Virus record (IMG/VR): IMGVR_UViG_3300021256_000061
Length of the DNA stretch: 64,000 nucleotides
DNA from: a virus
Lineage: Duplodnaviria; Heunggongvirae; Uroviricota; Caudoviricetes
Direction: 5' to 3' (one strand)
The notes beneath the pieces were generated by a model. That model did not search any database. It worked only from the letters and a program-made list of their open reading frames with translations, and was not told the DNA's origin. Below are positions 522 to 16,930 of the stretch, piece after piece (the first letter of the stretch is position 1; each line of letters starts with the position of its first letter). Position numbers and translations under genes: made by a program.

Positions 522-680
522 AGTGCTTGTTGTTTATTGTTTCAGTTATTTATACTGCATTTGAAGGCTGGCGTGAGGTCTTTCGATTTCTCTCCTACCG
601 AAGTCACTTATCGGGTCTTCACCAGCCCTCTAACGCAGTTTTTTTATTCTATCAATGTATTTGCAAAAACCGTACCAAAC

Positions 681-1094
681 TTAATCTGTCACATCATAAT
701 AATATGACATTGCCTCGTTATTTCCCTCGAAGTTCTTATAAAGAACCTGCTGGGCTTCTTTCCAAAGCGTGTCGTAGAGCTTGGAAAACTCCATTGCCTT
801 GGCATCATCAATGCCGAGATAACGGCTATCCACTTTTTGATAGTAGGCCCAAAGTTTATGGTTCAGAACCATTATGAGTTCGGTAAGGGCTTTGTAATTG
901 TTACCGTACGACCTGATGCAGTCGTTGTAGGTCTTGCGGATTGCGTCCTTGTCTCTCATGTAAACCTCACAGAATTCCGCAATGGCGAAGTCGTGGTAAA
1001 AGGTGTACTTTGGAGTATAAGGATTCATGTCGGAAAGGTTGGCTTTCCAATTGAGTTCTACTACTGCAGCAAACTGAAATACATTCATTCTCAT
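681..1094 (-). CDS. hypothetical protein (137 aa)
   Basis: ORF; sigma-54-like motif variant (caacaaccatgccaaa) 35 nt upstream at 1129-1144. Confidence 0.5.
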   Translation of the reverse strand: MRMNVFQFAAVVELNWKANLSDMNPYTPKYTFYHDFAIAEFCEVYMRDKDAIRKTYNDCIRSYGNNYKALTELIMVLNHKLWAYYQKVDSRYLGIDDAKAMEFSKLYDTLWKEAQQVLYKNFEGNNEAMSYYYDVTD

Positions 1095-1145
1095 AATAGT
1101 GTGTTTTTGGCTTATGCTTAAGGTATATCAACAACCATGCCAAAG

Positions 1146-1886
1146 TTAAAAAAAGTCAAAGCCTCCAAATTGTATAGATAATCCTATGGAGAAAGAGTGC
1201 TTCGTGTTATATGCTTCTAAACAAACAATAACACCACTAAAATTTATACCTGCGTGTAATCCTATGCCACAATCTTTATAGTCGGTAAATTGTTCGTTAA
1301 AACGCTCTCTCAATGCGTAGTGCTGATATTCCCAACCAATTGAATTTTCACTGGTATCAAATAGACAGTGGTAAGTTGTTTCGCTGAAAATGGATGGCGC
1401 AAAGACAAAAAATGTATGCTTGCTTAATTTAACTTCAAGATTAAACGGTCGCCACCCATATCTACTAAAATGAGTGTTTGTTTCCATCCTGTAACCAAGA
1501 ACGTCATATTTTGGTGGTAAAAGATGCCAATTAGAACCAAACTGTGCATAAATACCTAAACAAGAAAGCCCAGCATAACTAACAGAGGGTGAAACACCAA
1601 ACTCATTGTTTGATGAAATATTATTAAGCAAAACAACACCATTATTAGCGCCACATATTTCCACTACGGCATCATATGGTGGAACAAACGGCGACCACGG
1701 ACAAAAGATTTTTACCTTACGCCCAGTTATCTTTTCACGCTTAACCTTGTTGGAAGTAGTCGCTTGACTACTCTGTGATACCGCAGCATTATACGGAATA
1801 CGCAAGTCTGTGTATGTTGTACCTCTGTATTGCGCACTGCCCAATATTGGTAGAAAAATTAGTAAAATAGTTAAAAATTTTTTCAT
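1146..1886 (-). CDS. secreted protein, outer-membrane beta-barrel-like (246 aa)
   Basis: N-terminal signal peptide MKKFLTILLIFLPILGSAQ; C-terminus ends ...GGFDFF (terminal aromatic typical of OM beta-barrels); same promoter variant upstream at 1914-1930. Confidence 0.5.
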   Translation of the reverse strand: MKKFLTILLIFLPILGSAQYRGTTYTDLRIPYNAAVSQSSQATTSNKVKREKITGRKVKIFCPWSPFVPPYDAVVEICGANNGVVLLNNISSNNEFGVSPSVSYAGLSCLGIYAQFGSNWHLLPPKYDVLGYRMETNTHFSRYGWRPFNLEVKLSKHTFFVFAPSIFSETTYHCLFDTSENSIGWEYQHYALRERFNEQFTDYKDCGIGLHAGINFSGVIVCLEAYNTKHSFSIGLSIQFGGFDFF

Positions 1887-2008
1887 AATAAATTGTGTTT
1901 TCTTAAACTATATCAACAACCATGCCAAACTGTAAAAAAGTGCAGGAGAATTTCACAATTGTCCTGCACCGTCAAAAAAACACAATTAATATGAATGAGT
2001 TATATGTC

Positions 2009-2677
2009 TTAAAATTTGCCACCTAGCGCACAATAATATTTGTATGTATCTTTTATTGTCTTAATTTGTGCAGGCGTTAGCGTAATAACTTTGTAATAAT
2101 GACTGCCGTTAAGTTTAACCTTAACTGTTGTAGCATTTGCAAGTTTTGATATAAAAACTTCATTAATTGTTATTCTGATGTTGCTAACAGATTCGTCGCA
2201 CCACTCCCATATTTTTCCGCCATATCCACAGTCGGTTTCCATGTTAAGGGGAATAATCTGTATGTTTTCTCCGTCTATATTGAAAATAAAGTTCTTTATG
2301 AATAGCCAATCATCTGCATAGTACTGGAAAACAAGCCTGAAATTTTCTGGTTTACCACTCTTAATTGCAAAGTAACAGTAAATCCCATTTCTGTTCGTGT
2401 ATAGTGGACGGTTTTTAGGCTTTACCCAAGTATAATCACTAAACTCATCGTTTTTAACATCAAAAAGATTGTGGTACCTGTTTATTACCTCCGCACGGGC
2501 TGTCGCACGGGCTGTGGAATCGGCTTTCTGCCTCTCCCTTAGTTCAGCGGCATATTTCTGTAAGTCCATCTCCGAATTGCCTGCAATGCCGTTTTTGGGC
2601 GTTTCTTTTGAACCACAAGAAACGAAAGTGATGGCGACTGTGAAAATACACAGTAAAAGCATAATGATTCTTTTCAT
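2009..2677 (-). CDS. lipoprotein (222 aa)
   Basis: Signal peptide with lipobox ...TFVSC|GS; promoter motif gcaaagaccgtgcca at 2715-2729. Confidence 0.55.
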   Translation of the reverse strand: MKRIIMLLLCIFTVAITFVSCGSKETPKNGIAGNSEMDLQKYAAELRERQKADSTARATARAEVINRYHNLFDVKNDEFSDYTWVKPKNRPLYTNRNGIYCYFAIKSGKPENFRLVFQYYADDWLFIKNFIFNIDGENIQIIPLNMETDCGYGGKIWEWCDESVSNIRITINEVFISKLANATTVKVKLNGSHYYKVITLTPAQIKTIKDTYKYYCALGGKF

Positions 2678-2714
2678 AATTGTTCTTTTTTTTAATTTGT
2701 TTACTTATTCTATT

Positions 2715-2729
2715 GCAAAGACCGTGCCA
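2715..2729 (-). promoter_or_regulatory. sigma-54-type -24/-12 motif (sense: TGGCACGGTCTTTGC), representative of >25 copies
   Basis: Plus-strand gcaaagaccgtgcca; reverse complement matches RpoN consensus TGGCACG-N4-TTGCW exactly; 36-50 nt upstream of ATG at 2677. Confidence 0.5.
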
Positions 2730-2845
2730 GAATAACTCGATTACTTAATATATACTCAAAAGAGTACCTAATATTATAACAAAACCCCCAGGAGCGTTGG
2801 AACACGAGCCCAGGGGCAAACACAACTATAATATGGAAACAAATG

Positions 2846-3250
2846 TTATTCATCTGTTAAGTAATCTTCTGATAGATATTTGATTTCATCCAAAATATCA
2901 TCGACCAGATATGATGTGTCATCGATTACGAAGTTCGTACTTTTGGTACCGTCTTCAAATTCGACTTCCAATTCTCCGTCATCGGTGAGCCTGATGTATT
3001 CGAATATTTTCATCTTGGCTACACCATTATCATCGACATCGCTGAAATCTGTTGCTGTATGGGGAATGCCGCAGTCGTGACCGACATATAAAACATCCAA
3101 TTCGCCGTCTGTCAGGGTTATAAACTGTGAGAGAAGTTCTTTGATTTTCTTCACGATATCTTTCTCGATGTCGGCATAGATTTTCTTTTGCGCTATCAAA
3201 GCATGGAAACATCCTACGAAATCGTATGCGTTTTTCTTTTCCTGTTTCAT
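2846..3250 (-). CDS. highly acidic small protein (134 aa), candidate DNA mimic/anti-restriction
   Basis: ORF; strongly Asp/Glu-rich composition; early-region context. Confidence 0.45.
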   Translation of the reverse strand: MKQEKKNAYDFVGCFHALIAQKKIYADIEKDIVKKIKELLSQFITLTDGELDVLYVGHDCGIPHTATDFSDVDDNGVAKMKIFEYIRLTDDGELEVEFEDGTKSTNFVIDDTSYLVDDILDEIKYLSEDYLTDE

Positions 3251-3257
3251 GACTCTG

Positions 3258-3641
3258 TTACTTTTTATTAAGGATTGCTTCTACCTGTGCGCGGACTCTT
3301 GCTTGCATTTCTTCGTAGGTCTCGCACTTTGCGTTTAGACCATAGGTTCGAAGTATTTCGGCAATTTGCTTGCTTTCTTCTACGGTAGCAGTCCCGATGT
3401 GATAATCAAGTACCGTCCTTTCGTTCACGAGGTCGCTCTCTTTCCAATCATAGATGGTGAAGAAGATGCCGTTGATTTCTAGGGCAAAGTCATAGTGTGT
3501 CTTGTCTCCCCTTTCACGTTTCGGGAGTTCGATACCCAAGGCTGTGCAAATTTGCAGCAGCGAGTTGTGAATGTAGCCGTAATGGAAAGAGGTCTTGTAG
3601 AGCCTTTCATCAGAGCCAGTAATTTTCTTAATAGTTGCCAT
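3258..3641 (-). CDS. hypothetical protein (127 aa)
   Basis: ORF; promoter motif at about 3668-3685. Confidence 0.5.
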   Translation of the reverse strand: MATIKKITGSDERLYKTSFHYGYIHNSLLQICTALGIELPKRERGDKTHYDFALEINGIFFTIYDWKESDLVNERTVLDYHIGTATVEESKQIAEILRTYGLNAKCETYEEMQARVRAQVEAILNKK

Positions 3642-3690
3642 ATCTATGTGTTTTAGTTGTTTCCTTTATAGTAGCAAAGTTCGTGCCAAA

Positions 3691-3885
3691 CTACACGTTT
3701 TCAACACTATCTATGACAAAACTTTCGACAAGAAAGCCAGTACCATCAGAAATGGTGTCCGCGATTTCATCTTCGCTGTCGCAGAAGATTGTCATTGATT
3801 TGGGCAGTGATACGCCCTCCTCGCTGGCAAGTCCCATTGAGTCGGTCATATCATACTTGATATTTGAAATTTTGTACTTTCTCAT
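3691..3885 (-). CDS. hypothetical protein (64 aa)
   Basis: ORF; conserved leader aaagtaatagagtt immediately upstream of ATG. Confidence 0.4.
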   Translation of the reverse strand: MRKYKISNIKYDMTDSMGLASEEGVSLPKSMTIFCDSEDEIADTISDGTGFLVESFVIDSVENV

Positions 3886-3892
3886 AACTCTA

Positions 3893-4348
3893 TTACTTTA
3901 TGCCCAAAACTTGTTTAAGGGCGGTTTTTACTTTTGCTGAATATTCGTTGTCATTCCGCCATCTTGCTCCCCAAAACTCGAAAAAGTATTCGATTTCGGT
4001 TTCGCTCTTGGCACGAAGATGCGTGAGCCTTGCACAAGCACCAGAGGACATAAACCCACTACGGTCATCTTCAAGGAGGAGCGAGCGTTTGAGTTTCACT
4101 TCTTTTGTCCCGAATTTCTGATAGAACATCTTGACGAGTTCGGCTTTGGTATAATCAATCTTGTGGATTGTCCCATAGACTTCTATGACGGTGCTGCTGC
4201 TGTCCTTGACCTCTCCGAACTTTTCTTCAAGGTATTTACGGACTTTGTTCCCAGCATCAATACCAGCGGTCACACTGTCCTCAACAGTTACCTGATAAGT
4301 ACCTTTGTACTCTAACGGCCAGTTGTAATTCACTATAAATGTTCTCAT
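3893..4348 (-). CDS. hypothetical protein (151 aa)
   Basis: ORF; promoter motif 4385-4400 upstream. Confidence 0.5.
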   Translation of the reverse strand: MRTFIVNYNWPLEYKGTYQVTVEDSVTAGIDAGNKVRKYLEEKFGEVKDSSSTVIEVYGTIHKIDYTKAELVKMFYQKFGTKEVKLKRSLLLEDDRSGFMSSGACARLTHLRAKSETEIEYFFEFWGARWRNDNEYSAKVKTALKQVLGIK

Positions 4349-4451
4349 AATGTGTTGTGTTTCGATTACATCTTTGTATAATCAAAGACCGTGCCAAACT
4401 TTCTCGGAGTGACACGGTCTTTGCCGTTTTTAGCATTTTTAACGCAAGGCG

Positions 4452-4580
4452 TTATGCGTTTTCAGTCTCACGGAGAAACTCGTCCTTGCAATAGTCTGTA
4501 AGTGAATAGTAGAGTTCCGTAAGGAGTTCCACTTTCTCCCCATTGGATAGTTTGTTGAATTCTTTCTTGATTGTGTCCAT
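4452..4580 (-). CDS. small protein (42 aa, MDTIKKEFNKLSNGEKVELLTELYYSLTDYCKDEFLRETENA)
   Basis: ATG at 4578-4580 complement; promoter motif at about 4613-4630, 25 nt upstream; preferred over overlapping 68-aa ORF 4439..4645 in another frame. Confidence 0.4.
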   Translation of the reverse strand: MDTIKKEFNKLSNGEKVELLTELYYSLTDYCKDEFLRETENA

Positions 4581-4654
4581 ATTGTTATTGTTTGATTACG
4601 ATATAGGATATAACAAAGACCGTGCCAAACCTTTCGGAACAACACGAAAATTTG

Positions 4655-4909
4655 TTAGATTTCGTGAGTACAACTTTTGAAATGTTCTAAATCGTAAGAA
4701 GAATCGGTGATATCTTCAGCCGTAGCATAGAACGCATCTTCATCATCTTGAAAAAGTCCTGCGTTTTCAGCCATCTGTACGGCATCGGCTTCTTCAGTGG
4801 CATCGCACTTGACGGCAAATGAATAGCCGTGTCTGCCTGCAACATTGATTGAAAAAATCCTCTTACTTTTCATCGGTAACTTCTTTTGATTTATACACTC
4901 CCCAGCCAT
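4655..4909 (-). CDS. hypothetical protein (84 aa)
   Basis: ORF track; ATG verified. Confidence 0.45.
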   Translation of the reverse strand: MAGECINQKKLPMKSKRIFSINVAGRHGYSFAVKCDATEEADAVQMAENAGLFQDDEDAFYATAEDITDSSYDLEHFKSCTHEI

Positions 4910-5245: not shown

Positions 5246-5674
5246 TTATTCCTCCTCCAAATCATCAAAGGTTTCGTCTGCTTTGAGAACTCTGCCATTG
5301 TTTTCTTCATCGGCATATTCCACGATGTCCTCAAGCATAGTGAGCAGGTAGTTCATTTGACTTGCCTCAAAGAGGTCGGTTTCATCCCACTCTGCGAACT
5401 CGTAGTCATCGGTGTCCTTCATTTCAAGGATAAGACTGCGAGAGCCATCGCTATTCTTTTTGATTGTGAGGGTGTCCACATAGAGTGCCCTACCGTAACC
5501 ATCGTCATCGCAGGCAAAGAACAAACACCTATCGGTGTAGTCATTCGCCCAATACTCATAGAGATTGACGGAAGTGATTTTTCGGGAGTCAAGCAGGTCG
5601 AAGATTGCTCGGAGGATTTCTTGGCGCACAAAATCAAGAGCGCGTGCAAATAGGGGAGTTTCTTTAACTACCAT
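5246..5674 (-). CDS. acidic protein (142 aa), candidate DNA mimic
   Basis: ORF; C-terminal D/E-rich; promoter motif at about 5713-5728. Confidence 0.5.
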   Translation of the reverse strand: MVVKETPLFARALDFVRQEILRAIFDLLDSRKITSVNLYEYWANDYTDRCLFFACDDDGYGRALYVDTLTIKKNSDGSRSLILEMKDTDDYEFAEWDETDLFEASQMNYLLTMLEDIVEYADEENNGRVLKADETFDDLEEE

Positions 5675-5728
5675 ATCAGTTGTTGTTTATTGGTTTACGA
5701 CTATACTACTTCAAAGACCGTGCCACGA

Positions 5729-6253
5729 TTAGAGGAACCGCAGTCGCAGAGCAACAATTTCACCCTTTGAGTTGTATCCTGCGTAGAGGTCATAAGCACC
5801 GTCACCAAGTCCACTACTTGCTACTGCTCCGACAATCTTCTTGTTGCTTTTGACCATACCGCAGTTGTGCTTTTTGTCATTGAGGGTAATATTGCAGACA
5901 TCTTGATACCACTGCTCGGATTCGGGGGTGTCAATGTTCGGGTGATACTTGTCATAGTTTTCCCTTTCAAAGATACCACACTGACCGCTATCTACACCGC
6001 ACCAACCGATAAGGCTTGTTGCTTTTTTCTTGGGGCAGGATTCGTGATTGATTGTGAGTTCTACAACTCTTTCACCCCACCACTCGTCAATTACGCCATA
6101 CTTGGCTTTGGCGGTGTAAGTCCCCTCTTTTAACTGAACCCCACGATTGTGACCGTTGATAGATTCGTAGCAGGGGTCGGAAACAATAACCTTGCCATTG
6201 GCAGGCTTGAAATTTCCAAGTACCGTTTGCGTTACCGTAATTCTCATATTCAT
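5729..6253 (-). CDS. hypothetical protein (174 aa, Cys-rich)
   Basis: ORF; promoter motif at about 6283-6298. Confidence 0.5.
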   Translation of the reverse strand: MNMRITVTQTVLGNFKPANGKVIVSDPCYESINGHNRGVQLKEGTYTAKAKYGVIDEWWGERVVELTINHESCPKKKATSLIGWCGVDSGQCGIFERENYDKYHPNIDTPESEQWYQDVCNITLNDKKHNCGMVKSNKKIVGAVASSGLGDGAYDLYAGYNSKGEIVALRLRFL

Positions 6254-6301
6254 TGTGTTTGTTGGTTTACACGATTACTTAATCAAAGACCGTACCAAAC
6301 C

Positions 6302-6952: not shown

Positions 6953-7111
6953 CTATTCCTCCTCCACGGTCGCATTAAAGGTAGCACCTTTGAGTGTCAT
7001 ACCGTAATCCTCGCTATCGGAATATTCAATGGCAGTTGCTATTTCACGCAGGGCATCTGCAACAAACCCCTCTTTTGCATTGAGAGTGATTGTGAGTTTT
7101 ACTTCTTCCAT
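6953..7111 (-). CDS. small acidic protein (52 aa, MEEVKLTITLNAKEGFVADALREIATAIEYSDSEDYGMTLKGATFNATVEEE)
   Basis: Below ORF-track cut-off; ATG 7109-7111 complement; promoter motif 7148-7162 about 40 nt upstream. Confidence 0.35.
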   Translation of the reverse strand: MEEVKLTITLNAKEGFVADALREIATAIEYSDSEDYGMTLKGATFNATVEEE

Positions 7112-7147
7112 AATTATTGTTGTTTTAACTTGTTTACTTTTTTATAA

Positions 7148-7162
7148 ACAAAGACCGTGCCA
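7148..7162 (-). promoter_or_regulatory. sigma-54-type -24/-12 motif copy
   Basis: acaaagaccgtgcca; followed by the 18-bp hairpin motif tactcaaaagagtacctaa at 7167-7185. Confidence 0.45.
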
Positions 7163-7578: not shown

Positions 7579-8016
7579 TTAGTAGTCAAAGGTCGCAAAC
7601 CTTTGTTTCATAGGAAAAACATCGGTGTCCTCAACATCTCCCTTGCCACCGAGCAACCTATCAATGTTGTTTGCAAGGTCTGCCCAGTCGGAATAGTTGT
7701 TTGGGCCACCGTGATAGTCCTTTGCGTGTTCAGCAGTCCTTATGAGGATATGATGCAGGACTGGGGTTGAGCGATTGAAAAGGTTGTTAGAGTGTAAAAG
7801 GTACACATACTTTCCGTTGCGTTCAAACATAGCACTTTCGTCATAGTGCATAGGGTCAAACCGCACGAGGGTTGCTCCCATATCTTCTGCCATCTTCTTC
7901 AAGATGCGTTTGAAGGCTCGCTCAAAGCCCTTGTATTCGTTACTGCGGACACAGCCCCAATCTTCGAGGGGCTTACCGTGCCACTTGCGATAAAAGTCTA
8001 TTCTTGCTCTTTCCAT
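7579..8016 (-). CDS. hypothetical protein (145 aa)
   Basis: ORF; promoter motif at about 8053-8068. Confidence 0.5.
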   Translation of the reverse strand: MERARIDFYRKWHGKPLEDWGCVRSNEYKGFERAFKRILKKMAEDMGATLVRFDPMHYDESAMFERNGKYVYLLHSNNLFNRSTPVLHHILIRTAEHAKDYHGGPNNYSDWADLANNIDRLLGGKGDVEDTDVFPMKQRFATFDY

Positions 8017-8047: not shown

Positions 8048-8329
8048 TTATTGCAAAGACCGTGCCACACAAGTCTTTATCTCCTGCAAAAGTTCATCAA
8101 GACTTGCTACCTCTTTCCGATTAGTTATCCAAGAACTACGAGGGTCGCTACACATCATACGTTCATTAAGTATGATATATGCCTTTATGTTCTCAAGAGG
8201 GTTGATATAGGTCGCAATCCCCTTGCACTCTGCCATATTGGAACTCCACATACTCTCGGTGAACCCCATTTCTTTAAGGGCATTTATAACCTTTTGTGCT
8301 TCCGCGCTGTTTGATACCTTAATGTACAT
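8048..8329 (-). CDS. hypothetical protein (93 aa)
   Basis: ORF; promoter motif at about 8363-8378. Confidence 0.5.
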   Translation of the reverse strand: MYIKVSNSAEAQKVINALKEMGFTESMWSSNMAECKGIATYINPLENIKAYIILNERMMCSDPRSSWITNRKEVASLDELLQEIKTCVARSLQ

Positions 8330-8430
8330 ATTGCTTGCTTTAAGCGTTTATACCTTTACTCTTGCAAAGACCGTGCCGTTATGTAATAAAGTTATGGGTG
8401 ATAGATAAATTTCCACCACCCTTAACTTCG

Positions 8431-8886
8431 TTACTTTTCTTCTACCATTGCTTTCTTGTATTCCTTTGCCAATTCCAGCAAGGTGTTGATAACATCGGTG
8501 TCGCTTTCCCAATCTCCGTCCAGCACCTCGCACCGAGCATTGTCGCAAAGCCACTTTATAGAGTCTTTCTCTTTGGGGTTGTAGTTGGGGTTCTTGTAGT
8601 AAATGAAACTCTCAAACCAATTGTTGTCATCAATGTAGAGCCGTCCATCTTCAAGTGCTTTTTCGTATTCCTCTCCACCATTATGGAAAAGGTCTATGAG
8701 TTCTTGTGGCATCTGCGAAGATGCTTTGTAAACTACATCGTTGAAAACCACACGAACATACCCCTCAACCCTTATCTCCACCAGCAAGTCGCTGGTTTTA
8801 AGTGTAGCAACAACCTGCCCACTATCAAGTTCCATTGAATCATTGATACCAATAAGGAAATCTGCAATTGTGAAATTGTACTTCAT
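8431..8886 (-). CDS. hypothetical protein (151 aa)
   Basis: ORF; promoter motif at about 8923-8938. Confidence 0.5.
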   Translation of the reverse strand: MKYNFTIADFLIGINDSMELDSGQVVATLKTSDLLVEIRVEGYVRVVFNDVVYKASSQMPQELIDLFHNGGEEYEKALEDGRLYIDDNNWFESFIYYKNPNYNPKEKDSIKWLCDNARCEVLDGDWESDTDVINTLLELAKEYKKAMVEEK

Positions 8887-9024
8887 ATTGTCGTGCTTTA
8901 TGTTAACTCACTTACTTATTTGCAAAGACCATACCAAACTTAATTCGGTTACTTTTTATTTTGGTGTTGAAAAGGGGTGACCATAGGATAGCCACCCCCA
9001 AAACAACACTAAAATGATATGGAA

Positions 9025-9495
9025 TTAACAATATTCGCCATCGTCAATTACTCTTGCGATTTCGTCCCTATCTTCAAGGGGAAGTCCGAAGAAACTGACA
9101 TAATTGAGGTCACACTCGTCTATTTCTTTGACAGGTTTACTGCTGTTGCTATCATCGGTAGTTATGACCTTTATATCCTCGTTGCCCTCGTCAAGCATAA
9201 AGCCAACTGCGGTTGAGCCATCGGAAAGGCAGAACGGATTTTCTATATCAGCGATTTCTCCGTCCTCAAATGTTGATTTGACATCGAAGTAGGTCTGCTC
9301 GCAATATCTTGCTCTTTCTTCATCGCTGGGCTTGTTGTCGGCCTTGTTGAGCCAATCTTCATCTACGAAGTAGGCGGAACTGCCGAAATCTTCTATGCCC
9401 TTATCATCGTTGATAAGATAGGAGTTTTGTCTAAACCCTGCTTTGGTCATAAGGTCTTGGCTCTCGGGCCAAGTTACTACTACATACTTTCCCAT
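9025..9495 (-). CDS. acidic protein (156 aa), candidate DNA mimic
   Basis: ORF; D/E-rich; promoter motif at about 9528-9543. Confidence 0.5.
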   Translation of the reverse strand: MGKYVVVTWPESQDLMTKAGFRQNSYLINDDKGIEDFGSSAYFVDEDWLNKADNKPSDEERARYCEQTYFDVKSTFEDGEIADIENPFCLSDGSTAVGFMLDEGNEDIKVITTDDSNSSKPVKEIDECDLNYVSFFGLPLEDRDEIARVIDDGEYC

Positions 9496-9604
9496 TGTTG
9501 TTGTGTTTATTGGTTTATACTTTTACCTATGCAAAGACTATGCCATTGTTTCTTAAAGATAGGGGGAGCATTGGGTTTTCACTCCCCCTTTTGATATGGA
9601 AAGA

Positions 9605-10333
9605 CTACATTGCAAGGTTGTAAATTTTCTCGCCCTCTGCGTTTCTTTTGAACTCGGAGTCTAACTTATAGTTCTGCTCATAGACCTTATTGAGAAGTTT
9701 TCCGCACTCGCTTTCGGGCATCTGCATATACTTCTTTGCATCTTCCACAAGGGAACGGACTGCATCTTCGGCATTGTGCCGTTTCTGCTTGTATTCATCA
9801 TCGCCATAGCGATTGTAAGGTCGGTCATTGAGAACGAGAGTGTTTATGCGTTTGTAGAGGGGCATCACATAGGGGCGGTTCTCATTGTACTTCTTCCTTG
9901 CTTTGATAAGGTCGGAAGAAAGCAGGGGGACAATGGCTTTGATAGCCTTGCGGAGTTCATCTGCGGAAATGTTGAGGGGAGAATGTACGCACTCGCGCCC
10001 CCAAGAACCACCGACATCTTCCCATTTGGCATTGATGGTATATCCACCGACAAGATAGCGAGCAGGTACATATTCAGTTCCATCGGTGCTATCTCCCTGC
10101 CAATAGACCTTTGCATAAAGTTGGTTGGTTTTGGAAAGGTCAAAACCCTCTATGGAGTGATTCCAATTGAAGTTATCGTGCACCACATCGTGTGAGAAAT
10201 TGATTTCGGTGCGGTATTCATCTACGAACCCAAATTTCTTCATAATTTCGGGGATTACTTCAAGGGACTTGTAGATGTTGTTTCCGTTAAGGATTTCGCG
10301 ATAATACTTCGCAGTTTTTCTTACTTGTGCCAT
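9605..10333 (-). CDS. hypothetical protein (242 aa)
   Basis: ORF; upstream sense sequence TGGCACACCTTTTGCT (sigma-54-like) at about 10360-10378. Confidence 0.55.
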   Translation of the reverse strand: MAQVRKTAKYYREILNGNNIYKSLEVIPEIMKKFGFVDEYRTEINFSHDVVHDNFNWNHSIEGFDLSKTNQLYAKVYWQGDSTDGTEYVPARYLVGGYTINAKWEDVGGSWGRECVHSPLNISADELRKAIKAIVPLLSSDLIKARKKYNENRPYVMPLYKRINTLVLNDRPYNRYGDDEYKQKRHNAEDAVRSLVEDAKKYMQMPESECGKLLNKVYEQNYKLDSEFKRNAEGEKIYNLAM

Positions 10334-10435
10334 AGTGTGTTATGTTTTGTTGTTTACTTGTCTATAAGCAAAAGGTGTGCCACAATTTAGACAAAAAGGT
10401 ATTGGGGGTGAATTTTTTTTATCACCCCCTGCCTT

Positions 10436-11227
10436 TTAGTATATCTTCTGCTCATACTTGACTTTACCCGTAGGGGTTTTGATGGTTACTATGAAGTATC
10501 TGCGTTTCTCGCCCTCGCACTCCAATTCGTGATACTCGGAATACTTCCTATCAATTTCATCTATGTAATCTTCTTCGCCCCTCTTGATGGTTAGGATGTC
10601 TTTGGAAGTTCTTGCGTTGCGCAATTCTTCAAGAACCCTTGCACACTTCTTGGGTTTGTTGTCAAGGAAAATCCTTTCGCCATACTCGTCCCATAGGCGA
10701 CCTCTCTTGCCACCCATATTCGCAGTGAAAAACTCGTAGTTGGAAATCTGCTTGTTGCCCCAATCAAACTTACCATACTTGTTGATGAAGTTCATAAGGG
10801 AGTTGTATTCCTTGCAAGGTGCATCAGCAAGGCAAACCTTTGTTATAACATTGACATAGGTGGTGTTGTAAAGTCCGCCAAAACAATGCGTCTGCTTTTC
10901 AAAAACGAAGTTCAGTCCGCCCCAACCTTTGACTTTCTTCTGCTCGTTCAGTAGATTCGCGACCTTGCTGAAAGTGCTACTGACTTCGGATATCGTTGAC
11001 AAATTCCGAACAATCGTCTTGCCATTAACCACAATGTTATAGGTGGTTTCGCCCTTTGTATAAGTCCCATTAGAGGGATTAAATTTAGAGGTGCATACAT
11101 CATCATAGTAAAGTTCCACCATCTGCGAGTGTCTATCCCAAGCGGTGGTCACCTTGCCCTTGTTGTACTTCTTCGCATCTGCGAGTATGGCCTTGATTGT
11201 CTTGAAAATAAGTTGTGCGTTATCCAT
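10436..11227 (-). CDS. hypothetical protein (263 aa; start moved to internal Met MDNAQLIF...)
   Basis: Promoter motif (sense TGGCACACTTCTTGCT) lies inside the longer ORF at 11250-11270, so ATG at 11225-11227 is preferred. Confidence 0.5.
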   Translation of the reverse strand: MDNAQLIFKTIKAILADAKKYNKGKVTTAWDRHSQMVELYYDDVCTSKFNPSNGTYTKGETTYNIVVNGKTIVRNLSTISEVSSTFSKVANLLNEQKKVKGWGGLNFVFEKQTHCFGGLYNTTYVNVITKVCLADAPCKEYNSLMNFINKYGKFDWGNKQISNYEFFTANMGGKRGRLWDEYGERIFLDNKPKKCARVLEELRNARTSKDILTIKRGEEDYIDEIDRKYSEYHELECEGEKRRYFIVTIKTPTGKVKYEQKIY

Positions 11228-11308
11228 AATGTTGTTTTTTGGTTTATACCTTTCTATAAGCAAGAAGTGTGCCAACACGCTAAAATTGTCAGCACACTCC
11301 TCACCTTT

Positions 11309-11499: not shown

Positions 11500-11772
11500 T
11501 TAAAAGAATTTAATGAAGTAATCGTTGGAAGTAATCTCGCCATCTTCAAGAGCGAAGTTGAACTCTGCTTGGAACTCTCGCAGGGTGTAAACATCTGCCA
11601 CCTCATCGTAGGAACTATCTATAATGTCCTTGCATTCTTGCTCGGTCATTTCCTCATCTACATAGAGAGCAAAATCATTACACTTTTCCTCGTCATTGGA
11701 GAACTTGCTCATAATGTATGCCCTCGTTTCATCTACGGGGAGCACATAAACTTTTGTTTCCTTTTTTGCCAT
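11500..11772 (-). CDS. acidic protein (90 aa)
   Basis: ORF; promoter motif at about 11798-11815. Confidence 0.45.
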   Translation of the reverse strand: MAKKETKVYVLPVDETRAYIMSKFSNDEEKCNDFALYVDEEMTEQECKDIIDSSYDEVADVYTLREFQAEFNFALEDGEITSNDYFIKFF

Positions 11773-11897
11773 ATTCGTTTACTTTTTTGGCTACACTTCA
11801 CCTATATGCAAATTCTATGCCAAACTGAAAAAAGAAAGGGAGTTAACCTTACGATTTTCTCCCTTTCCACGCTAAACACTATATATGGAACACAACT

Positions 11898-12440
11898 TTA
11901 TTTCATTTCTAACACATCTTCTTGATATGCCCTTGCATCCCTCGCAAAGAAGATGATGGTGTTCAAGTCCATATCATCTGCGACGTGCATAAGGTAATCG
12001 TAGGCATAGTCCTCGTAGTTTGCCAGCACTATGGATTTATCATCCCCTGCGCCTACATACCCTTTCGCTATCATTTCATCCATATCCCTATGCATAAGAG
12101 CCTTGAGGATGATGGACAAGGTCTTTTTGCTATTTTTCCACAACTCGTTGATGATGTCCACCAATTTGGGGTTGTGGGAGTTGGTGTCATCCATTATGAT
12201 TTTGCCAGCCTCTCTTGCCTTTATGAGATGGAGAGCACGGAGTTCTGCGTTCTCTATCTCCGCCTGCCTGCAAAGGCAACAATTCGCGCAGTATTGCTGG
12301 TCAGGTTCATCGCTTGGACGGCACATAGAGCAGGTAACAATCCGTTTTCCGCAACTGGGGCAGGTCTGCACCATCAGTTCAGCATCCAGCTCAACTTCTT
12401 CCCCACAATGGGGGCATACTTCGTAACATTTATTTTCCAT
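11898..12440 (-). CDS. double zinc-ribbon protein (about 180 aa; start at internal Met MENKCYEV)
   Basis: CPHCGEEVELDAELMVQTCPSCGKRIVTCSMC motif; promoter motif (sense TGGCATGATTATTGCC) at 12458-12482 lies inside the longer ORF. Confidence 0.5.
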   Translation of the reverse strand: MENKCYEVCPHCGEEVELDAELMVQTCPSCGKRIVTCSMCRPSDEPDQQYCANCCLCRQAEIENAELRALHLIKAREAGKIIMDDTNSHNPKLVDIINELWKNSKKTLSIILKALMHRDMDEMIAKGYVGAGDDKSIVLANYEDYAYDYLMHVADDMDLNTIIFFARDARAYQEDVLEMK

Positions 12441-12586
12441 ATCCGTATGTTTTTGATTTGCTTGTCTATAAGGCAATAATCATGCCAATCTTTATTCGGT
12501 TACTTTTCTTATTACTCAAAAGAGTACCTTTAAGCCAATGGCTTTGCAGATGCGCCTTGCAATCTTATAACAATCCTCTTTGAGAA

Positions 12587-12958
12587 TTATATTGGGGTTG
12601 CGGTGTTCCCTACGAAAAGTGTTGGCTTTTTGGGTAATCCCAGGGACTCCGCTATCTTTTCCGAACTTTCAAGTCTTGCTTGGATTTCAAGGGGGCAATT
12701 GACACAACACTTGCTATCAATATCCACTGCCCTACACATAGAGCAAGTAACAATCCTCGCTCCGCAACTCGGGCAAGTTTGTATTTTCAGTTCGGCATCT
12801 AACTCCACCTCCTCTCCGCACTGGGGACATACCTCATAGGTCTTATCCTTTGTTGCTTTCAGTTCGGGAAAAATGGTGTCAAGAAACTCGTTAGTCCCTT
12901 TGCCATAGTAGGACTTGGCTAACTGCAAACCCCTTTTGTATTTTTCTTTGTAGCCCAT
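12587..12958 (-). CDS. zinc-ribbon protein (123 aa), paralog of 11898..12440
   Basis: CPQCGEEVELDAELKIQTCPSCGARIVTCSMC is near-identical to the neighbouring gene. Confidence 0.5.
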   Translation of the reverse strand: MGYKEKYKRGLQLAKSYYGKGTNEFLDTIFPELKATKDKTYEVCPQCGEEVELDAELKIQTCPSCGARIVTCSMCRAVDIDSKCCVNCPLEIQARLESSEKIAESLGLPKKPTLFVGNTATPI

Positions 12959-12985
12959 AATTCGCCTACTTTATTCGTTGTGATT

Positions 12986-13408
12986 TTAGTAGGTGTAAAC
13001 CCAAACATAGTCATCTTTGTCCACGCACTCAAGCACCTTTTCCAGCCACGAATTAAGTTCATAGAGTGCATCAACTCTCATTTCCTTAAAAATGCCACGA
13101 GTAATAAGTTTTAGTGCCATTGGCGAACTTTCACAATCTTTAATTGCGTTGAGGGTTTCCTCGTGCAGTTTTTCAATGCACTCTTTCTTTACCGACACAT
13201 CTCGTGTCCTGCCATTTTCGGTATATAAACCAAAGTATTTAGCGAGTTTGTTAGTTGTTACAGGCTTTCCCTCACTTTGGGTATAGTGACCACCCAAAGT
13301 AGAATACTCCCCTAAAAACGTACCGCCATTGAGGATAGTTTCCCTTTCTTCGATAGCAACATCTTCCATTGCTACGTTTAATTTTCTAAATTCAATGCTT
13401 AGTGACAT
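12986..13408 (-). CDS. hypothetical protein (about 140 aa; start at internal Met MSLSIEF)
   Basis: Promoter motif 13452-13468 lies inside the 179-aa ORF; ATG at 13406-13408 verified. Confidence 0.45.
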   Translation of the reverse strand: MSLSIEFRKLNVAMEDVAIEERETILNGGTFLGEYSTLGGHYTQSEGKPVTTNKLAKYFGLYTENGRTRDVSVKKECIEKLHEETLNAIKDCESSPMALKLITRGIFKEMRVDALYELNSWLEKVLECVDKDDYVWVYTY

Positions 13409-13494
13409 ATTGTTAATTGTGTTTATTGGTTTAACTTTCTTTTGCTTTCTATGTATCAACAATCGTGCCAAACAATCTGCACTCATTTGAGTAC

Positions 13495-13737
13495 CTAATT
13501 TGATATATTGTCGGTATTGAGCCACCTAAAGGTCAGTGCATCTACGCAAGAAGACATATCCCTTACAAGCCCCATCATAGCATCTGCCTCTTCATCGGTG
13601 TAGCCGTTGTTGGTAAACACCTCGCCATCAGCACACCACCCCTCAAAACCCTCAGCCCCATTGTCTGCCAAAACATTGTTGGAGTACATATTGATAACCT
13701 GCTCGGTTATCGCCTTTATCATTTCATTGTGTGTCAT
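13495..13737 (-). CDS. hypothetical protein (80 aa)
   Basis: ORF. Confidence 0.4.
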   Translation of the reverse strand: MTHNEMIKAITEQVINMYSNNVLADNGAEGFEGWCADGEVFTNNGYTDEEADAMMGLVRDMSSCVDALTFRWLNTDNISN

Positions 13738-13744
13738 AACTCGG

Positions 13745-14029
13745 TTAGTTTATAGGATAATAGATTTCATCTTCGTAGTCCCTTGTGTTGTTGGGGTTCT
13801 CGAACTTGCTGAACCGCTCCTCGGCAAGGCACATAGGGTAATCACTGACACCATCGGTGCAAACCTCTTTGCCATCTTTGAGGTCAAAGTAAATGTGGGC
13901 ATACCTCTCCATCTCGCTACCCTCGGTGTTACGCATCGCATCTTCGTAAAAGTCCAACGCGTTCCTGCGTTTTTCCCATTTCTCAATGGAGTTGTAGCAA
14001 CATACTACAATGTAAGTTTTTTCTTTCAT
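13745..14029 (-). CDS. hypothetical protein (94 aa)
   Basis: ORF; promoter motif at about 14126-14142. Confidence 0.45.
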   Translation of the reverse strand: MKEKTYIVVCCYNSIEKWEKRRNALDFYEDAMRNTEGSEMERYAHIYFDLKDGKEVCTDGVSDYPMCLAEERFSKFENPNNTRDYEDEIYYPIN

Positions 14030-14180
14030 ATCAATATCATTTTAGTTGTGTCCATATAAAAGGGGGTGCAAGACCGAGAGTGAACTAACACCCCCCAAAA
14101 AATTGTTTCAACTCATAGGGAGTATAGGCAAAGACCGTGCCAAGTTTTAATTTGATTAGTTAATATGCCAAAGAAAAAAG

Positions 14181-14220
14181 ATAATATATAATAAGAAATT
14201 AATTTCTTATTATATATTAT
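14181..14220. repeat. perfect 40-bp palindrome ataatatataataagaaatt/aatttcttattatatattat
   Basis: Read directly; the two 20-bp halves are exact reverse complements; lies in the AT-rich divergent region between the minus-strand and plus-strand gene blocks. Confidence 0.9.
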
Positions 14221-14370
14221 AAAAAAAATACGCCCTTTAATGTAAGAATTGTCACGCTTTGCAGTATAAGGTATTAGACAAACATCAATAAAAAGTTGAA
14301 TTAAAAGTGAAAGATAATAAATAACCATTGGTATATATAAGCAAAGAAACCAACTAAACAACCCAATACC

Positions 14371-14601
14371 ATGAAAGTAAACTACACAATCGCTCTCTCG
14401 TTCTCTTATCGCCAAATGGTTGCAGTTATCAAATTCAACGGATATTTTTTTATCCGCTATGGTGGTAGCCACGAAATTTGGGGTAATGCTCACGGAGAAA
14501 TCCTCGTTATGTCGGAACACATCAAAGGAACTACCTTTGCCAGCGAATGTCGCAAACGCAAGTTCCAATTCTACGATAGTAAAGGTAAAAAAGTATATTA
14601 G
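14371..14601 (+). CDS. hicA: HicA-like (YcfA family) toxin-fold protein, 76 aa, no recognisable HicB partner
   Basis: IKFNGYFFIRYGGSHEIWGNAHGEILVMSEHIKGTTF aligns to the HicA core (G-x-x-x-R-x-x-GSH ... PvH..k.l..Gt). Confidence 0.45.
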   Translation: MKVNYTIALSFSYRQMVAVIKFNGYFFIRYGGSHEIWGNAHGEILVMSEHIKGTTFASECRKRKFQFYDSKGKKVY

Positions 14602-14661
14602 AATGCACCCTAATGCCTTTTTTGAAAAAAGTTATAAAATTATCCTAACTAAAATTCAGTT

Positions 14662-14677
14662 TGGTATGGTCTTTGAT
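14662..14677 (+). promoter_or_regulatory. degenerate plus-orientation copy of the -24/-12-like motif (TGGTATGGTCTTTGAT)
   Basis: Only 4 nt from ATG 14681, so promoter function here is questionable. Confidence 0.25.
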
Positions 14678-14680
14678 TAT

Positions 14681-15271
14681 ATGAAACGAAACACTAACAA
14701 TATGGGAAACCGTAAAGCCACCGTTGCCAAGGCACAAGGTGCTAATGCAACCAAGAACTACTTTGTAAACACCTACAATGTGCGTACGCACACTCTCATC
14801 GACTCCACTCCTTATGATACAAAGGAAGATGCAGAAAAAGCCATTCTTGAAAAAGTGGAAATGTACAACACCGCAATCGCACACCTCGCTACTCCCAACA
14901 CTATGCACCCTTACAAGGAAATAGAAAAGGGTAAGTGGCTCGCAGGTAATCTCCTTTCACTCGTTCAGTTGGGTGGGGATATGATGCTCCATATAAAAAG
15001 TGTATGGGAAATGCAGGCAATTTCCACCTGCATAGAACTCGGCACAATTGAACACGAGGAAACTATCCCCTCACAAGGTCTTATCCTTGTCGCTTACTTT
15101 GTACAAGGTCTGCATAAGGGCACTATTGCCGAAAAAGATGCAGTAATAGAGGACATTGTAAGAAGATACTATTCCGATGCGGAAACAAGAGCCACCTTTG
15201 ACCGCAGAGCATCTTTGGTAGTCAAGGCGAAAACCCCTTGGGAAATCTTCTCCGCCTTGCTCGCTGCCTAA
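14681..15271 (+). CDS. hypothetical protein (196 aa; start trimmed from 14420 ORF)
   Basis: Upstream part of ORF 14420..15271 overlaps the HicA-like gene in another frame; first ATG after it is 14681 (alternative 14702). Confidence 0.45.
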   Translation: MKRNTNNMGNRKATVAKAQGANATKNYFVNTYNVRTHTLIDSTPYDTKEDAEKAILEKVEMYNTAIAHLATPNTMHPYKEIEKGKWLAGNLLSLVQLGGDMMLHIKSVWEMQAISTCIELGTIEHEETIPSQGLILVAYFVQGLHKGTIAEKDAVIEDIVRRYYSDAETRATFDRRASLVVKAKTPWEIFSALLAA

Positions 15272-15341
15272 CTCTCTTTTGGGGGTGCTACCAACAACAC
15301 CCCCAATAATTTTGTAACTTTTTTCGTTAATTTGATTACTT

Positions 15342-15357
15342 TGGCACGATTCTTGTT
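15342..15357 (+). promoter_or_regulatory. sigma-54-type motif, plus orientation (TGGCACGATTCTTGTT)
   Basis: About 70 nt upstream of the DUF932 ATG. Confidence 0.45.
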
Positions 15358-15427
15358 TAAGTAAACGAGTGAACGGCAACGATGCCGAAATGACAAACAA
15401 GTTTAACAACTAAAAACAAACAACACT

Positions 15428-16411
15428 ATGAGTACAATGATGTCCTTCCACAATGACAATCTCGCAACCCAGTTCCTCACCAAAGACGATATCCGCAGGA
15501 TTGCGCCCAAGGTTCTCCTTAACAAGCCCACCAATCCCGATGTGTCCTCTCGCTACGCAGTGGCAAGCACTGAAAGTGTCATAGATGACCTCGCCAAACT
15601 CGGTTGGATGCCTGTGGATGCAAAGCAGCAGAAGATGCGCAAGGAATCCTCCATCCGTTCCTTCCACATCGTAGCCTTCCAAAACCCCGATGTCAAAATC
15701 TCTCGCACCGACTATGTGGACGAGCAGGGCAACAACTACGCATTCTCTCGCGTAACCGAGTTGCAGGACGAGCAGGGCAATGTTATCGGCTACGAAGGGC
15801 ACGATAGGTACGGACACACTTTCCCAGTGTTCAAGCAGGAAGGGGTGGAATGCTACCCTCGCATCGTCCTCACGAACTCCTATGACGGATTCAACTCCTT
15901 CACTTTCCGCGTGGCTCTTTTCCGCCTTGTCTGCTCCAATGGCCTTGTGGTCGCAACCGACACCTTCGTGGATATCTCCGTCCGCCACACCAAGTACAAT
16001 GTGCAGATTCTCAACGAAATCATCGCAAAGGCAATCTCCGCTATTGACGAGCAGGTCGGCACTTTCAACGATATGCGCGAGGTGGAACTCACTGACGAGC
16101 AGAAAACCGAGTTCGCCCTCAACGCAGTCCGCTATCGTCAGAACCTTCCCGATGATGCCGAAATGAAACTTGACGAGGACGGCATCGCAGACCTTCTTGA
16201 ACCCGTCCGCAACGAGGATGCAGGTAACTCCCTTTGGGCAGTGTTCAATGTCCTGCAAGAGAAGGTAACGAAGGGTGGCGCAGTGGTCGGCATCAACGGC
16301 AAGAAGGCTCGCAAGATGCGTGGCATCAAGTCCTTCGCAAAGGATATCAACATCAATCAGCGACTCTACAAGGCTGCCCTCGCCTACCTTCCCGAAAAGG
16401 TCGCTGCCTAA
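15428..16411 (+). CDS. DUF932-family protein (phage/plasmid-like protein, 327 aa)
   Basis: Core VLTNSYDGFNSFTFRVALFRLVCSNGLVV is characteristic of DUF932/TIGR03299. Confidence 0.7.
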   Translation: MSTMMSFHNDNLATQFLTKDDIRRIAPKVLLNKPTNPDVSSRYAVASTESVIDDLAKLGWMPVDAKQQKMRKESSIRSFHIVAFQNPDVKISRTDYVDEQGNNYAFSRVTELQDEQGNVIGYEGHDRYGHTFPVFKQEGVECYPRIVLTNSYDGFNSFTFRVALFRLVCSNGLVVATDTFVDISVRHTKYNVQILNEIIAKAISAIDEQVGTFNDMREVELTDEQKTEFALNAVRYRQNLPDDAEMKLDEDGIADLLEPVRNEDAGNSLWAVFNVLQEKVTKGGAVVGINGKKARKMRGIKSFAKDININQRLYKAALAYLPEKVAA

Positions 16412-16430
16412 CTCTCCAACTCTCTCAATA

Positions 16431-16457
16431 AGCACTCCGAAAGGGGTGCTTTTTTTA
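16431..16457 (+). terminator. rho-independent terminator
   Basis: agcactccgaaaggggtgct + T7. Confidence 0.6.
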
Positions 16458-16504
16458 TTGCATATACTCAAAAGAGTACCTAAATTACCACTACCCCGAT
16501 AATC

Positions 16505-16665
16505 TATCTTATTTGGCTTTATTATCTTGTGCTTTTCTATACTTTACTATCTTTCTTGTGCTTTATCATAGTCATAGTTCTTTGCTTACTTTATCTTGTA
16601 TTTTATTATACTTTATCATCCTTTTCTTGCTTTATCTTGTATTTTATTATGGCTTATTATTTCTC
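16505..16665. repeat. iteron-like degenerate direct repeats (ctttatcttgtattttattat x2 plus CTTGTGCTTT variants)
   Basis: Read directly; no ORF; between DUF932 and helicase genes. Confidence 0.6.
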
Positions 16666-16914
16666 ACAAAATACGCATAGACAAGCGCACTTGTGCAAGC
16701 ACACCAATATGCGTGCGCTCCCCCTTAATCCCCCTCGCCTTTCGGCTTGGCACGGTTATTGTTCAAGCCATCTGCGAAGTTTTTCATAGTTCGCACTGGG
16801 ATAGCCGTGATGGTCGCACCCATTGTGCTTCGTTTAGGGGAAAAAAGGGGTAGCCGTGAGGTCATACCCTTTTTTCTTGTTTCCCCATCCCCCCAAATAA
16901 CTTGATTACTTTTT

Positions 16915-16930
16915 TGGCACACGATTTGCA
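16915..16930 (+). promoter_or_regulatory. sigma-54-type motif, plus orientation (TGGCACACGATTTGCA)
   Basis: Exact TGGCAC-N5-TTGCA; 38 nt upstream of helicase ATG 16969; a second copy TGGCACGGTTATTGTT at 16757-16775. Confidence 0.5.

Follow-up and report, generated by a model that had tools for sequence, protein, structure and literature searches.

Sigma-54-type promoter sequences head small genes in related jumbo phages

We investigated a short recurrent motif, TTTGGCAYGNNNNTTG(C)W, in IMG/VR record IMGVR_UViG_3300021256_000061, a 64,000-nucleotide stretch of DNA from a virus of the class Caudoviricetes (hereafter, the window). We regard the motif as a genuine and conserved class of promoter, indistinguishable by sequence from sigma-54 (RpoN) promoters, and consider it probable that the sites are read by the host RNA polymerase carrying sigma-54 (E-sigma-54). 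The window has 30 copies, and the flanks of this phage add six (five in 3.7 kb on the left and one in 10 kb on the right), amounting to about 36 consensus-grade sites in about 78 kb, all oriented like the gene that follows them.

Motif array in the window

The 30 strong sites were obtained with a matrix built iteratively on the window; 25 lie on the minus strand and five on the plus strand, and each is named here by its upstream end. The 16-mer TGGCACGGTCTTTGCA had 18 matches with three or fewer mismatches (0.45 expected), and the looser pattern TGGYAYRNNNNTTGC had 14 exact matches (0.31 expected). At all 30 sites, the orientation of the motif is that of the next gene. An initial annotation of this DNA had reported more than 25 copies, and we found the motif at every coordinate it listed, with offsets of a few bases. 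Its plus-strand copies ahead of the DUF932 gene (15342) and the helicase gene (16915) were likewise recovered, whereas 14662, 16748, and 18914 had been missing from its main list. The accompanying statement that a copy precedes almost every early gene was too strong: there are about 20 sites for about 30 minus-strand genes in the region of 1–14 kb, where the genes without their own site are second or third cistrons.

Information content across the 30 sites is restricted to positions −27 to −11, and −10 to −1 is the least conserved part. T−26, G−25, G−24, A−22, T−15, T−14, and G−13 are invariant or almost so, C−23 and G−20 are present in 25 and 24 sites, respectively, and −21 is C or T in every site. 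The spacer GGTCT is frequent among the copies, and the core therefore seems longer within this phage.

Match to known sigma-54 promoters and conservation

We scored the sites on an independent matrix derived from 24 Escherichia coli and 28 Desulfomicrobium validated sigma-54 promoters (S2 Table, PMC12316311), with no phage sites used. The phage sites scored like genuine ones, with a mean of 17.0 ± 3.4 bits (range, 9.8 to 23.0), compared with a leave-one-out score of 15.6 ± 3.6 bits for the 52 known promoters. At a threshold of ≥12.1 bits, the window contained 29 matches, 28 of which were motif copies and one of which was intragenic (29472), against one to five in shuffled windows; the sites at 18914 (10.0 bits) and 60875 (9.8 bits) are marginal. 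The canonical RpoN spacing claimed in the initial annotation was also borne out. TGGYA-N6-TTG occurred 40 times in the window, versus at most 13 times for any other spacing from N3 to N10, and the same single peak at N6 was seen in three related phages (L171, 20; L173, 11; L175, 11), so that GG-N10-GC is exact in all four.

The loci of these relatives were taken around their helicase genes, at about 20 kb each. L171 (helicase identity, 65%) had 16 matches against 0.8 expected, L173 (74%) had nine against 1.3, and L175 (47%; G+C content, 48%) had 19 against 0.8, and these matches sit upstream of the relatives' own small genes. Whereas GGTCT is common in the phage of the window, the relatives carry CAAAC, AATCC, CATCC, GGAAT, and other spacers, and the consensus of 62 sites from the four phages, T-GG-c-A-.-g-.-t-.-t-TTG-c, retains the canonical positions alone. 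According to the initial annotation, the RpoN reading would have to be abandoned if the conserved core proved longer than RpoN sites and distinct from them; with the relatives included, the reading is not refuted on this ground. Since only the sigma-54 positions and the GG-N10-GC spacing are kept while the spacer drifts, a conserved host factor accounts for the pattern better than a phage-specific factor does.

No motif sites were found in a further related locus (L176; helicase identity, 50%) or in Bacteroides phage DAC16, the best helicase match among GenBank phages (41%); the latter result is uninformative because the helicase alone is common to both phages. We obtained no DNA-level match to GenBank phages, a helicase search of IMG/VR returned relatives at ≤27% identity only, and an exact-motif scan of IMG/VR gave isolated chance matches only. 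The clade is absent from the IMG/VR collection searched.

Promoter context

Counted from the start site predicted for a sigma-54 promoter, the ATG lies at +16 to +29 for 22 of the 30 sites, mostly at about +22 to +27, and in most sites of all four phages it lies 30–35 nt past the 19-mer of the site. A conserved G-TAAAC or G-TGAAC starts 9–11 nt past the 19-mer in 19 of 27 sites, with its T at +1 to +3. The leaders are 45% A, and a Shine-Dalgarno core was present in only 4 of the 81 genes of the window. Two short motif-to-ATG spacings had been cited earlier as exceptions. The 12-nt spacing at 56465 is real, with the ATG at +2, and a site in the right flank (L165, 6985), whose 19-mer is nearly identical to that of 56492, has its ATG at +3; both mRNAs would therefore be leaderless if transcription starts as a sigma-54 promoter predicts. 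The 4-nt spacing at 14681, on the other hand, was an artefact of start-codon choice, and the in-frame ATG at 14702 restores a normal leader.

A G+C hairpin with a T-run, ending the upstream gene, lies immediately before at least six of the sites, as judged by our own folding, suggesting that the transcription units are short and self-contained. A standard terminator scan gave 19 hits versus 18.2 expected and thus no enrichment; its loop limit misses the hairpins found by folding. These hairpins bear on the possibility that the motif acts in RNA, as a processing or translational-regulator site in long polycistronic transcripts, rather than as a promoter. Such a role would suit the constant motif-to-ATG distance and the copies that sit directly between tightly packed cistrons (56492, 32902), but transcripts from upstream would stop short of the motif at the several copies preceded by terminator hairpins. 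Moreover, there is no conserved secondary structure, and Rfam gave no family in the window, with none for Y-RNA or tRNA at gathering scores. Bipartite conservation with a free spacer is typical of duplex-DNA recognition, and an RNA-level role leaves the match to the independent sigma-54 matrix unexplained; we find it barely credible.

The sites also differ from the promoter types of other polymerases. The geometry of sigma-70/sigmaA promoters, with elements about 17–21 bp apart, was not seen at the motif sites; generic sigma-70-type matches were at chance level (44 versus 38.4 expected), and TAnnTTTG was not found at the matching position upstream of motif-headed genes. As for promoters of T7-like or N4-like polymerases, the window scans revealed no polymerase gene and the sites show no contiguous conserved block running through the start; the motif positions stay constant down to 47% helicase identity, without the co-variation expected for phage polymerase promoters. 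The sigma-54-type class is distinct from both the host sigmaA type (TAnnTTTG) and a late-looking type (ACTATTTAT) in the same window.

Activator, phage factor, and alternative readings

Sigma-54 is normally kept for a few tightly switched host operons, and among bacterial sigma factors it alone forms a holoenzyme that depends on an ATP-driven activator to open DNA. The holoenzyme requires an AAA+ activator (PMC7057263). The initial annotation had pointed out that a phage early region driven by sigma-54 would need such a protein, a bacterial enhancer-binding protein (bEBP). All sequence-level tests (matrix, spacing, relatives) favour the sigma-54 reading, whereas the search for its protein partners came back empty, and several observations weigh against it. 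Pfam scans of the called open reading frames (ORFs) of ≥60 aa in the window detected no bEBP (PF00158), sigma-54, or RNA polymerase gene, and tblastn with E. coli PspF and RpoN gave nothing significant in about 200 kb comprising the window, both flanks, and five related loci; of this phage's own genome of more than 300 kb, these activator searches reached the window and flanks. Even the most widely shared k-mer occurred in no more than 5 of the 30 upstream regions, and the enriched k-mers comprised only A/T runs and a small hairpin in four to five copies, giving no recognisable enhancer or common activator sequence. The −12 C is present in only 15 of 30 or 17 of 29 sites of this phage (50–59%), compared with 45 of 52 known promoters (87%), with TTGA or TTGT in about half of the copies. 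The relatives are closer to the canonical state (9/11, 6/8, and 13/14), and one may speculate that the relaxed −12 position affects how tightly the closed complex is locked. In addition, sigma-54 is usually of low abundance, so that its use at dozens of promoters that are presumably strong would be surprising, and the phage encodes its own sigma-70-family factor, a possible reader of the sites.

This phage factor (32903–33799, minus strand) is RpoS/RpoH/RpoD-like, with regions 1.2, 2, and 4, and falls below all curated cut-offs. The sites could be read by it, or through an appropriation of the MotA/AsiA kind, with the likeness to sigma-54 being convergence or coincidence. The factor appears to be expressed from a host sigmaA-type promoter, and the missing bEBP and enhancer, the weakly conserved −12 C, and a weak A/T-rich 'TATAg'-like stretch at −10 to −5, a possible −10 element with the same predicted start site, would all suit such a reader. 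However, sigma-70-family elements are about 17 bp apart, whereas two blocks one helical turn apart hold all of the information here, and the Bacteroidetes −7 element TAnnTTTG is missing at the right place. The universal sigma-54 positions are kept down to 47% helicase identity while the spacers drift, unlike what a co-evolving phage factor would produce, and the factor has another clear candidate target in ACTATTTAT upstream of late-type genes. We thus regard a phage specificity factor as an unlikely reader of these sites.

The sites might instead bind the host sigma-54 holoenzyme mainly as a sink, titrating sigma-54 and shutting down the host regulon, with the genes transcribed otherwise. Their density, the lack of any activator or enhancer found, and the predicted sigma-54 targeting of chaperone and envelope genes in Bacteroidota are compatible with this idea, but a sink would not require co-orientation with genes, a fixed distance to the ATG, upstream terminators, or a conserved start-site sequence, and no other promoter is visible for most motif-headed units. 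We judge it highly improbable.

A tblastn search with E. coli PspF gave matches in 66 GenBank phage records, but most among the matches listed look like bacterial contigs filed as phage, so no clear phage bEBP precedent was seen. bEBPs without a DNA-binding domain are known to act without an enhancer. Under the sigma-54 reading, the absence of a common upstream enhancer means that the activator would act from solution.

Genome, clade, and host

The phage content of the window includes PHROG families, an RNA ligase, a Ro-like RNA-binding protein, SSB, DnaJ, a DNA methylase, a UvrD-type helicase, the DUF932 protein, the sigma-70-family factor, and an IS607-like TnpB insertion. Identical genes occur on two sheep-rumen scaffolds of ENA ERZ28612970, scaffold_1699 (46 kb) and scaffold_25 (272 kb), which indicates a genome of more than 300 kb. 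Helicase and DnaJ homologues with 45–74% identity lie on contigs of 314–388 kb, which makes this a clade of jumbo phages. The host is probably a member of Bacteroidota, and probably of Bacteroidales, given the sigmaA-type TAnnTTTG promoters, the scarcity of Shine-Dalgarno sequences, and the rumen origin. TAnnTTTG promoters were found upstream of the dnaJ-to-sigma operon, SSB, and other window genes, and a related helicase is filed under a Bacteroidales metagenome-assembled genome. The DnaJ homologue search returned apparently related phages only, many on contigs of 350–390 kb, with no named bacterial matches; when the phage DnaJ was used as a query for host grpE-dnaJ promoters, genome contigs yielded unrelated Alphaproteobacteria. 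All 27 Bacteroidia genera covered by published surveys have rpoN, with Prevotella ruminicola (PRU_2855; seven bEBPs) among the entries, and chaperone and envelope genes have been predicted as sigma-54 targets in Bacteroidota.

In the model that we propose, each site has its −24 (TGGCAY) and −12 (TTG(C)) elements separated by one helical turn and heads a short unit of one to three small genes of unknown function. RNA polymerase of the host, probably a Bacteroidales member, would bind these sites with its own sigma-54 as closed complexes. An AAA+ activator would open them; it could come from the host, as a bEBP, or be encoded by the phage in DNA beyond the sequence searched. Transcription would begin about 12 nt past the −12 position, at the conserved G-TAAAC, and the transcripts would have A-rich leaders of about 21–26 nt without Shine-Dalgarno sequences, with two mRNAs predicted to be leaderless.

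Individual sites

Below, scores in bits are those on the independent sigma-54 matrix, ATG positions are counted from the predicted start site, and sites are on the minus strand unless stated otherwise. At the left end, TGGTACGGTTTTTGCA (662..677; 17.7 bits) is followed by gene 255–521 after a long leader (ATG at +131). TGGCATGGTTGTTGAT occurs twice with 15.8 bits, at 1127..1142 for gene 681–1094 (+23) and at 1912..1927 for gene 1146–1886 (+16), the latter with a terminator hairpin and T-run just upstream (−16.9 kcal/mol). The exact consensus TGGCACGGTCTTTGCA at 2714..2729 has the top score of the window (23.0 bits; gene 2009–2677, +27), and the same 16-mer recurs at 8052..8067 (20.8 bits; gene 7579–8016, +26), where it overlaps the 3′ end of the upstream ORF 8048–8329. 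TGGCACGAACTTTGCT (3673..3688; 22.1 bits) precedes gene 3258–3641 (+22), and TGGCACGGTCTTTGAT (4381..4396; 17.9 bits) precedes gene 3893–4348 (+23), with a degenerate inverted copy at 4410–4425 on the plus strand. TGGCACGGTCTTTGTT is likewise used twice, at 4612..4627 (18.1 bits) ahead of the small gene 4452–4580 (+22) and at 7147..7162 (16.7 bits) ahead of gene 6953–7111 (+26). Between these copies are TGGCACGGTCTTTGAA (5710..5725; 13.1 bits; gene 5246–5674, +26) and TGGTACGGTCTTTGAT (6282..6297; 13.6 bits), which precedes gene 5729–6253, a DUF4241 match (+19).

Upstream hairpins accompany several of the following sites. A strong one (−25.7 kcal/mol) lies before CGGCACGGTCTTTGCA (8363..8378; 13.6 bits; gene 8048–8329, +24), and terminator hairpins lie before TGGTATGGTCTTTGCA (8921..8936; 16.3 bits; gene 8431–8886, +25), TGGCATAGTCTTTGCA (9530..9545; 18.1 bits; gene 9025–9495, +25), TGGCACACCTTTTGCT (10367..10382; 19.3 bits; gene 9605–10333, +24), and, with a T-run, TGGCATAGAATTTGCA (11807..11822; 19.0 bits; gene 11500–11772, +25). 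TGGCACACTTCTTGCT (11259..11274; 20.6 bits) heads gene 10436–11227 (+22), TGGCATGATTATTGCC (12472..12487; 16.8 bits) heads gene 11898–12440 (+22), and TGGCACGATTGTTGAT (13455..13470; 16.8 bits) heads gene 12986–13408 (+37). The first leftward unit starts with TGGCACGGTCTTTGCC (14127..14142; 19.0 bits; gene 13745–14029, +88), whose leader contains a G+C hairpin and T-run.

The first rightward unit starts with TGGTATGGTCTTTGAT on the plus strand (14662..14677; 12.4 bits); the most likely start of its gene, which runs to 15271, is the second ATG, at 14702 (+16). Also on the plus strand, TGGCACGATTCTTGTT (15342..15357; 18.6 bits) follows a terminator hairpin and precedes the DUF932 gene 15428–16411 (Pfam; +61), and TGGCACACGATTTGCA (16915..16930; 19.6 bits) precedes the UvrD-type helicase gene 16969–18495 (+29). 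The helicase site is conserved in L173 and L175, and L171 has a site at 9949. Between them, TGGCACGGTTATTGTT (16748..16763, plus strand; 14.9 bits) is followed by no ORF for 196 nt, and L171 has a site in the equivalent position (9816). This ORF-less stretch of about 200 nt (16748–16914, plus strand) leads to a hairpin and T-run just before the helicase promoter, and the 16748 site could possibly head a short non-coding RNA. The last plus-strand site, TGGCATTGTTTTTGTT (18914..18929), is one of the two below the 12.1-bit threshold and precedes gene 19058–19702 (+119).

The remaining sites are on the minus strand. TGGCATGATTTTTGAA (24399..24414; 13.7 bits) precedes gene 23908–24288 (+101), and TGGCATGATTTTTGCA (25747..25762; 20.9 bits), just downstream of the TnpB gene, precedes gene 24904–25665 (+72). 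TGGCACGATTTTTGTA (32887..32902; 14.5 bits) adjoins the stop codon of the gene for the phage sigma-70-family factor on its downstream side and precedes gene 32627–32854 (+23). The best-scoring site outside the early block is TGGCACGATTCTTGCA (56477..56492; 22.1 bits), which heads an RNA-repair cluster, the first gene being 56142–56465 (107 aa; +2). TGGTATGATTTTTGTA (60860..60875), the other marginal site, lies 162 nt upstream of gene 59084–60688, with a sigmaA-type TAnnTTTG in between (at −76).

Two kinds of inverted repeat lie among these sites. A small conserved hairpin or palindrome of the form AGGTACTC-NNNN-GAGTA is found in intergenic positions on the minus strand at 2768, 7182, 12528, 13495, and 16480, and also in L173 and L175 between the DUF932 and helicase genes. 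Four of its copies precede a sigma-54-type site by 20–41 nt, and a role as a 3′-end hairpin or in protein binding is conceivable. At 14181–14220, within the 520-bp divergent region between the first leftward (14142) and first rightward (14662) sites, there is a perfect 40-bp A+T-rich palindrome, ATAATATATAATAAGAAATT|AATTTCTTATTATATATTAT, which may mark an origin of replication or a region of bidirectional control.

Neighbouring promoters and genes

The motif ACTATTTAT has 10 exact copies between 21 and 61 kb, nine of which are on the plus strand, and they lie mostly 24–59 nt upstream of the ATG of late-looking genes. Copies are found at 21355, 27569, 29067, 30410, 36237, 37919, 41841, and 60906 on the plus strand and at 27405–27413 on the minus strand, with close variants at 20175 and 49553–49562. 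This motif forms a second, phage-specific promoter-like class and is a plausible target of the phage sigma-70-family factor. Many of the proteins encoded behind it (gene starts at 21385, 27593, 29091, 30437, 49577, 60932, 61663, and 62144) have a common short helical motif at one end, of the type I-x-L-[ST]-E-x-[QD]-[LI]-[RK]-x-I-[VI]-A-E-[SN]-V-[KR]-[KR]-[VT]-L (e.g., INENTLRQIVAESVKRVLNE, LSEEQLKNIIAENVRKTLSE, and ITEEDIRYMVSEAVKKVLNE), which could be a targeting or packaging signal of a paralogue family. The sigma factor gene itself is co-transcribed with a full-length dnaJ (35070–36173, minus strand), and a predicted sigmaA-type promoter, TATATTTG, is located 31 nt upstream of the dnaJ ATG.

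The RNA-repair cluster (51091–60688, minus strand) encodes a Ro/TROVE-like protein (phrog_850), a metallophosphatase, a classical AAA ATPase, and an RNA ligase (phrog_968), together with a protein with HD and P-loop kinase domains, a CCA-adding/poly(A) polymerase-type enzyme, and a CPD-like protein. The AAA ATPase (56746–57804) was considered as the activator and rejected, as it is of the classical CDC48/FtsH type and not a bEBP.

Two huge paralogues of 1292 and 1182 aa (41900–45778 and 45994–49542, plus strand) consist of 9–11 repeats of phrog_25468, together with a YadA-head-like repeat, and are probably fibre or adhesin proteins; an adjoining 644-aa protein has a Fib_succ_major domain, listed as a Bacteroidota-type feature. 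The IS607-like insertion (25790–27402, minus strand) comprises a 123-aa MerR helix-turn-helix protein, apparently without a resolvase domain, overlapping a 415-aa TnpB with OrfB_IS605 and Cas12f1-like TNB domains. A similar pair of Resolvase and TnpB is present in the related locus L176.

Implications and comparison with known systems

A broader proposal, possible but doubtful at this stage, is that a jumbo-phage clade of about 310–390 kb infecting rumen or gut Bacteroidota runs its small early or host-takeover genes through the host sigma-54 polymerase at enhancer-less promoters. If true, this would need one of three things: an activator ATPase that acts freely and is either provided by the phage or hijacked by it, a relaxation of the −12 element that makes activation less necessary, or a new phage opening factor that is not a bEBP; opening of sigma-54 closed complexes by such a factor would be a new mode of sigma-54 control. 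It would represent a new phage transcription strategy, an all-or-none switch for dozens of genes with essentially no basal expression, and would point to an activator yet to be found or to an activator-bypass mechanism. Sigma-54 biology in Bacteroidota, whose regulon is known mostly from prediction and little from tests, would also become directly accessible. Metatranscriptomes of the same rumen samples are publicly available, and the shortness of the promoter suits it to gel-shift assays and transcription in vitro.

T4 middle promoters combine a MotA box with a sigma-70 −10 element, sigma-70 being redirected by MotA and AsiA. Like the motif studied here, they are a short, near-identical cassette before many small genes and form a class beside host-type and late-type promoters, although the present motif matches the unrelated sigma-54 family and lacks −35/−10 geometry. 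The late-looking motif ACTATTTAT is comparable with the T4 late promoter TATAAATA.

Among bacterial promoters, E. coli pspG (TTTGGCATGATTCTTGTAA), pspA, and rtcB share with the phage sites the consensus TGGCAC-N5-TTGC(W), the spacing, and the range of matrix scores. Some phage copies are almost identical to pspG; that at 15342 (TTTGGCACGATTCTTGTT) differs from it at two core positions, and pspG and pspA have TTGT at −12, as do several phage copies. Unlike bacterial sigma-54 promoters, the phage sites form an array, have the conserved start-site sequence G-TAAAC and a less frequent −12 C, and lack a recognisable upstream activator sequence or a nearby cognate bEBP gene. A functional parallel is offered by the sigma-54/RtcR RNA-repair operons (rtcBA; rsr-rtcBA in Salmonella), which likewise have a sigma-54-type promoter before RNA-repair genes, the E. 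coli rtcB promoter being on the validated list (PMC12316311). The 22.1-bit phage site heads genes for an RNA ligase, a kinase, a CCA-adding enzyme, and a CPD-like protein, downstream of a Ro-like protein, but the ligase belongs to a non-RtcB family (PHROG 968), and no RtcR-like activator was found.

In the literature searched, the sole phage case of sigma-54 was Pseudomonas phage YuA, with nothing of comparable scale in phage; a comparative review of jumbo phages did not mention sigma-54, and no paper joining sigma-54 and Bacteroidota phages was retrieved. As summarised in PMC10914365 (citing Ceyssens et al. 2008), YuA has one sigma-54-like promoter and thus likewise uses a host sigma-54-type promoter. 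In that account, the YuA promoter is a single one beside sigma-70-type and phage-specific promoters, whereas the sites described here number in the dozens and are conserved across a jumbo-phage clade.

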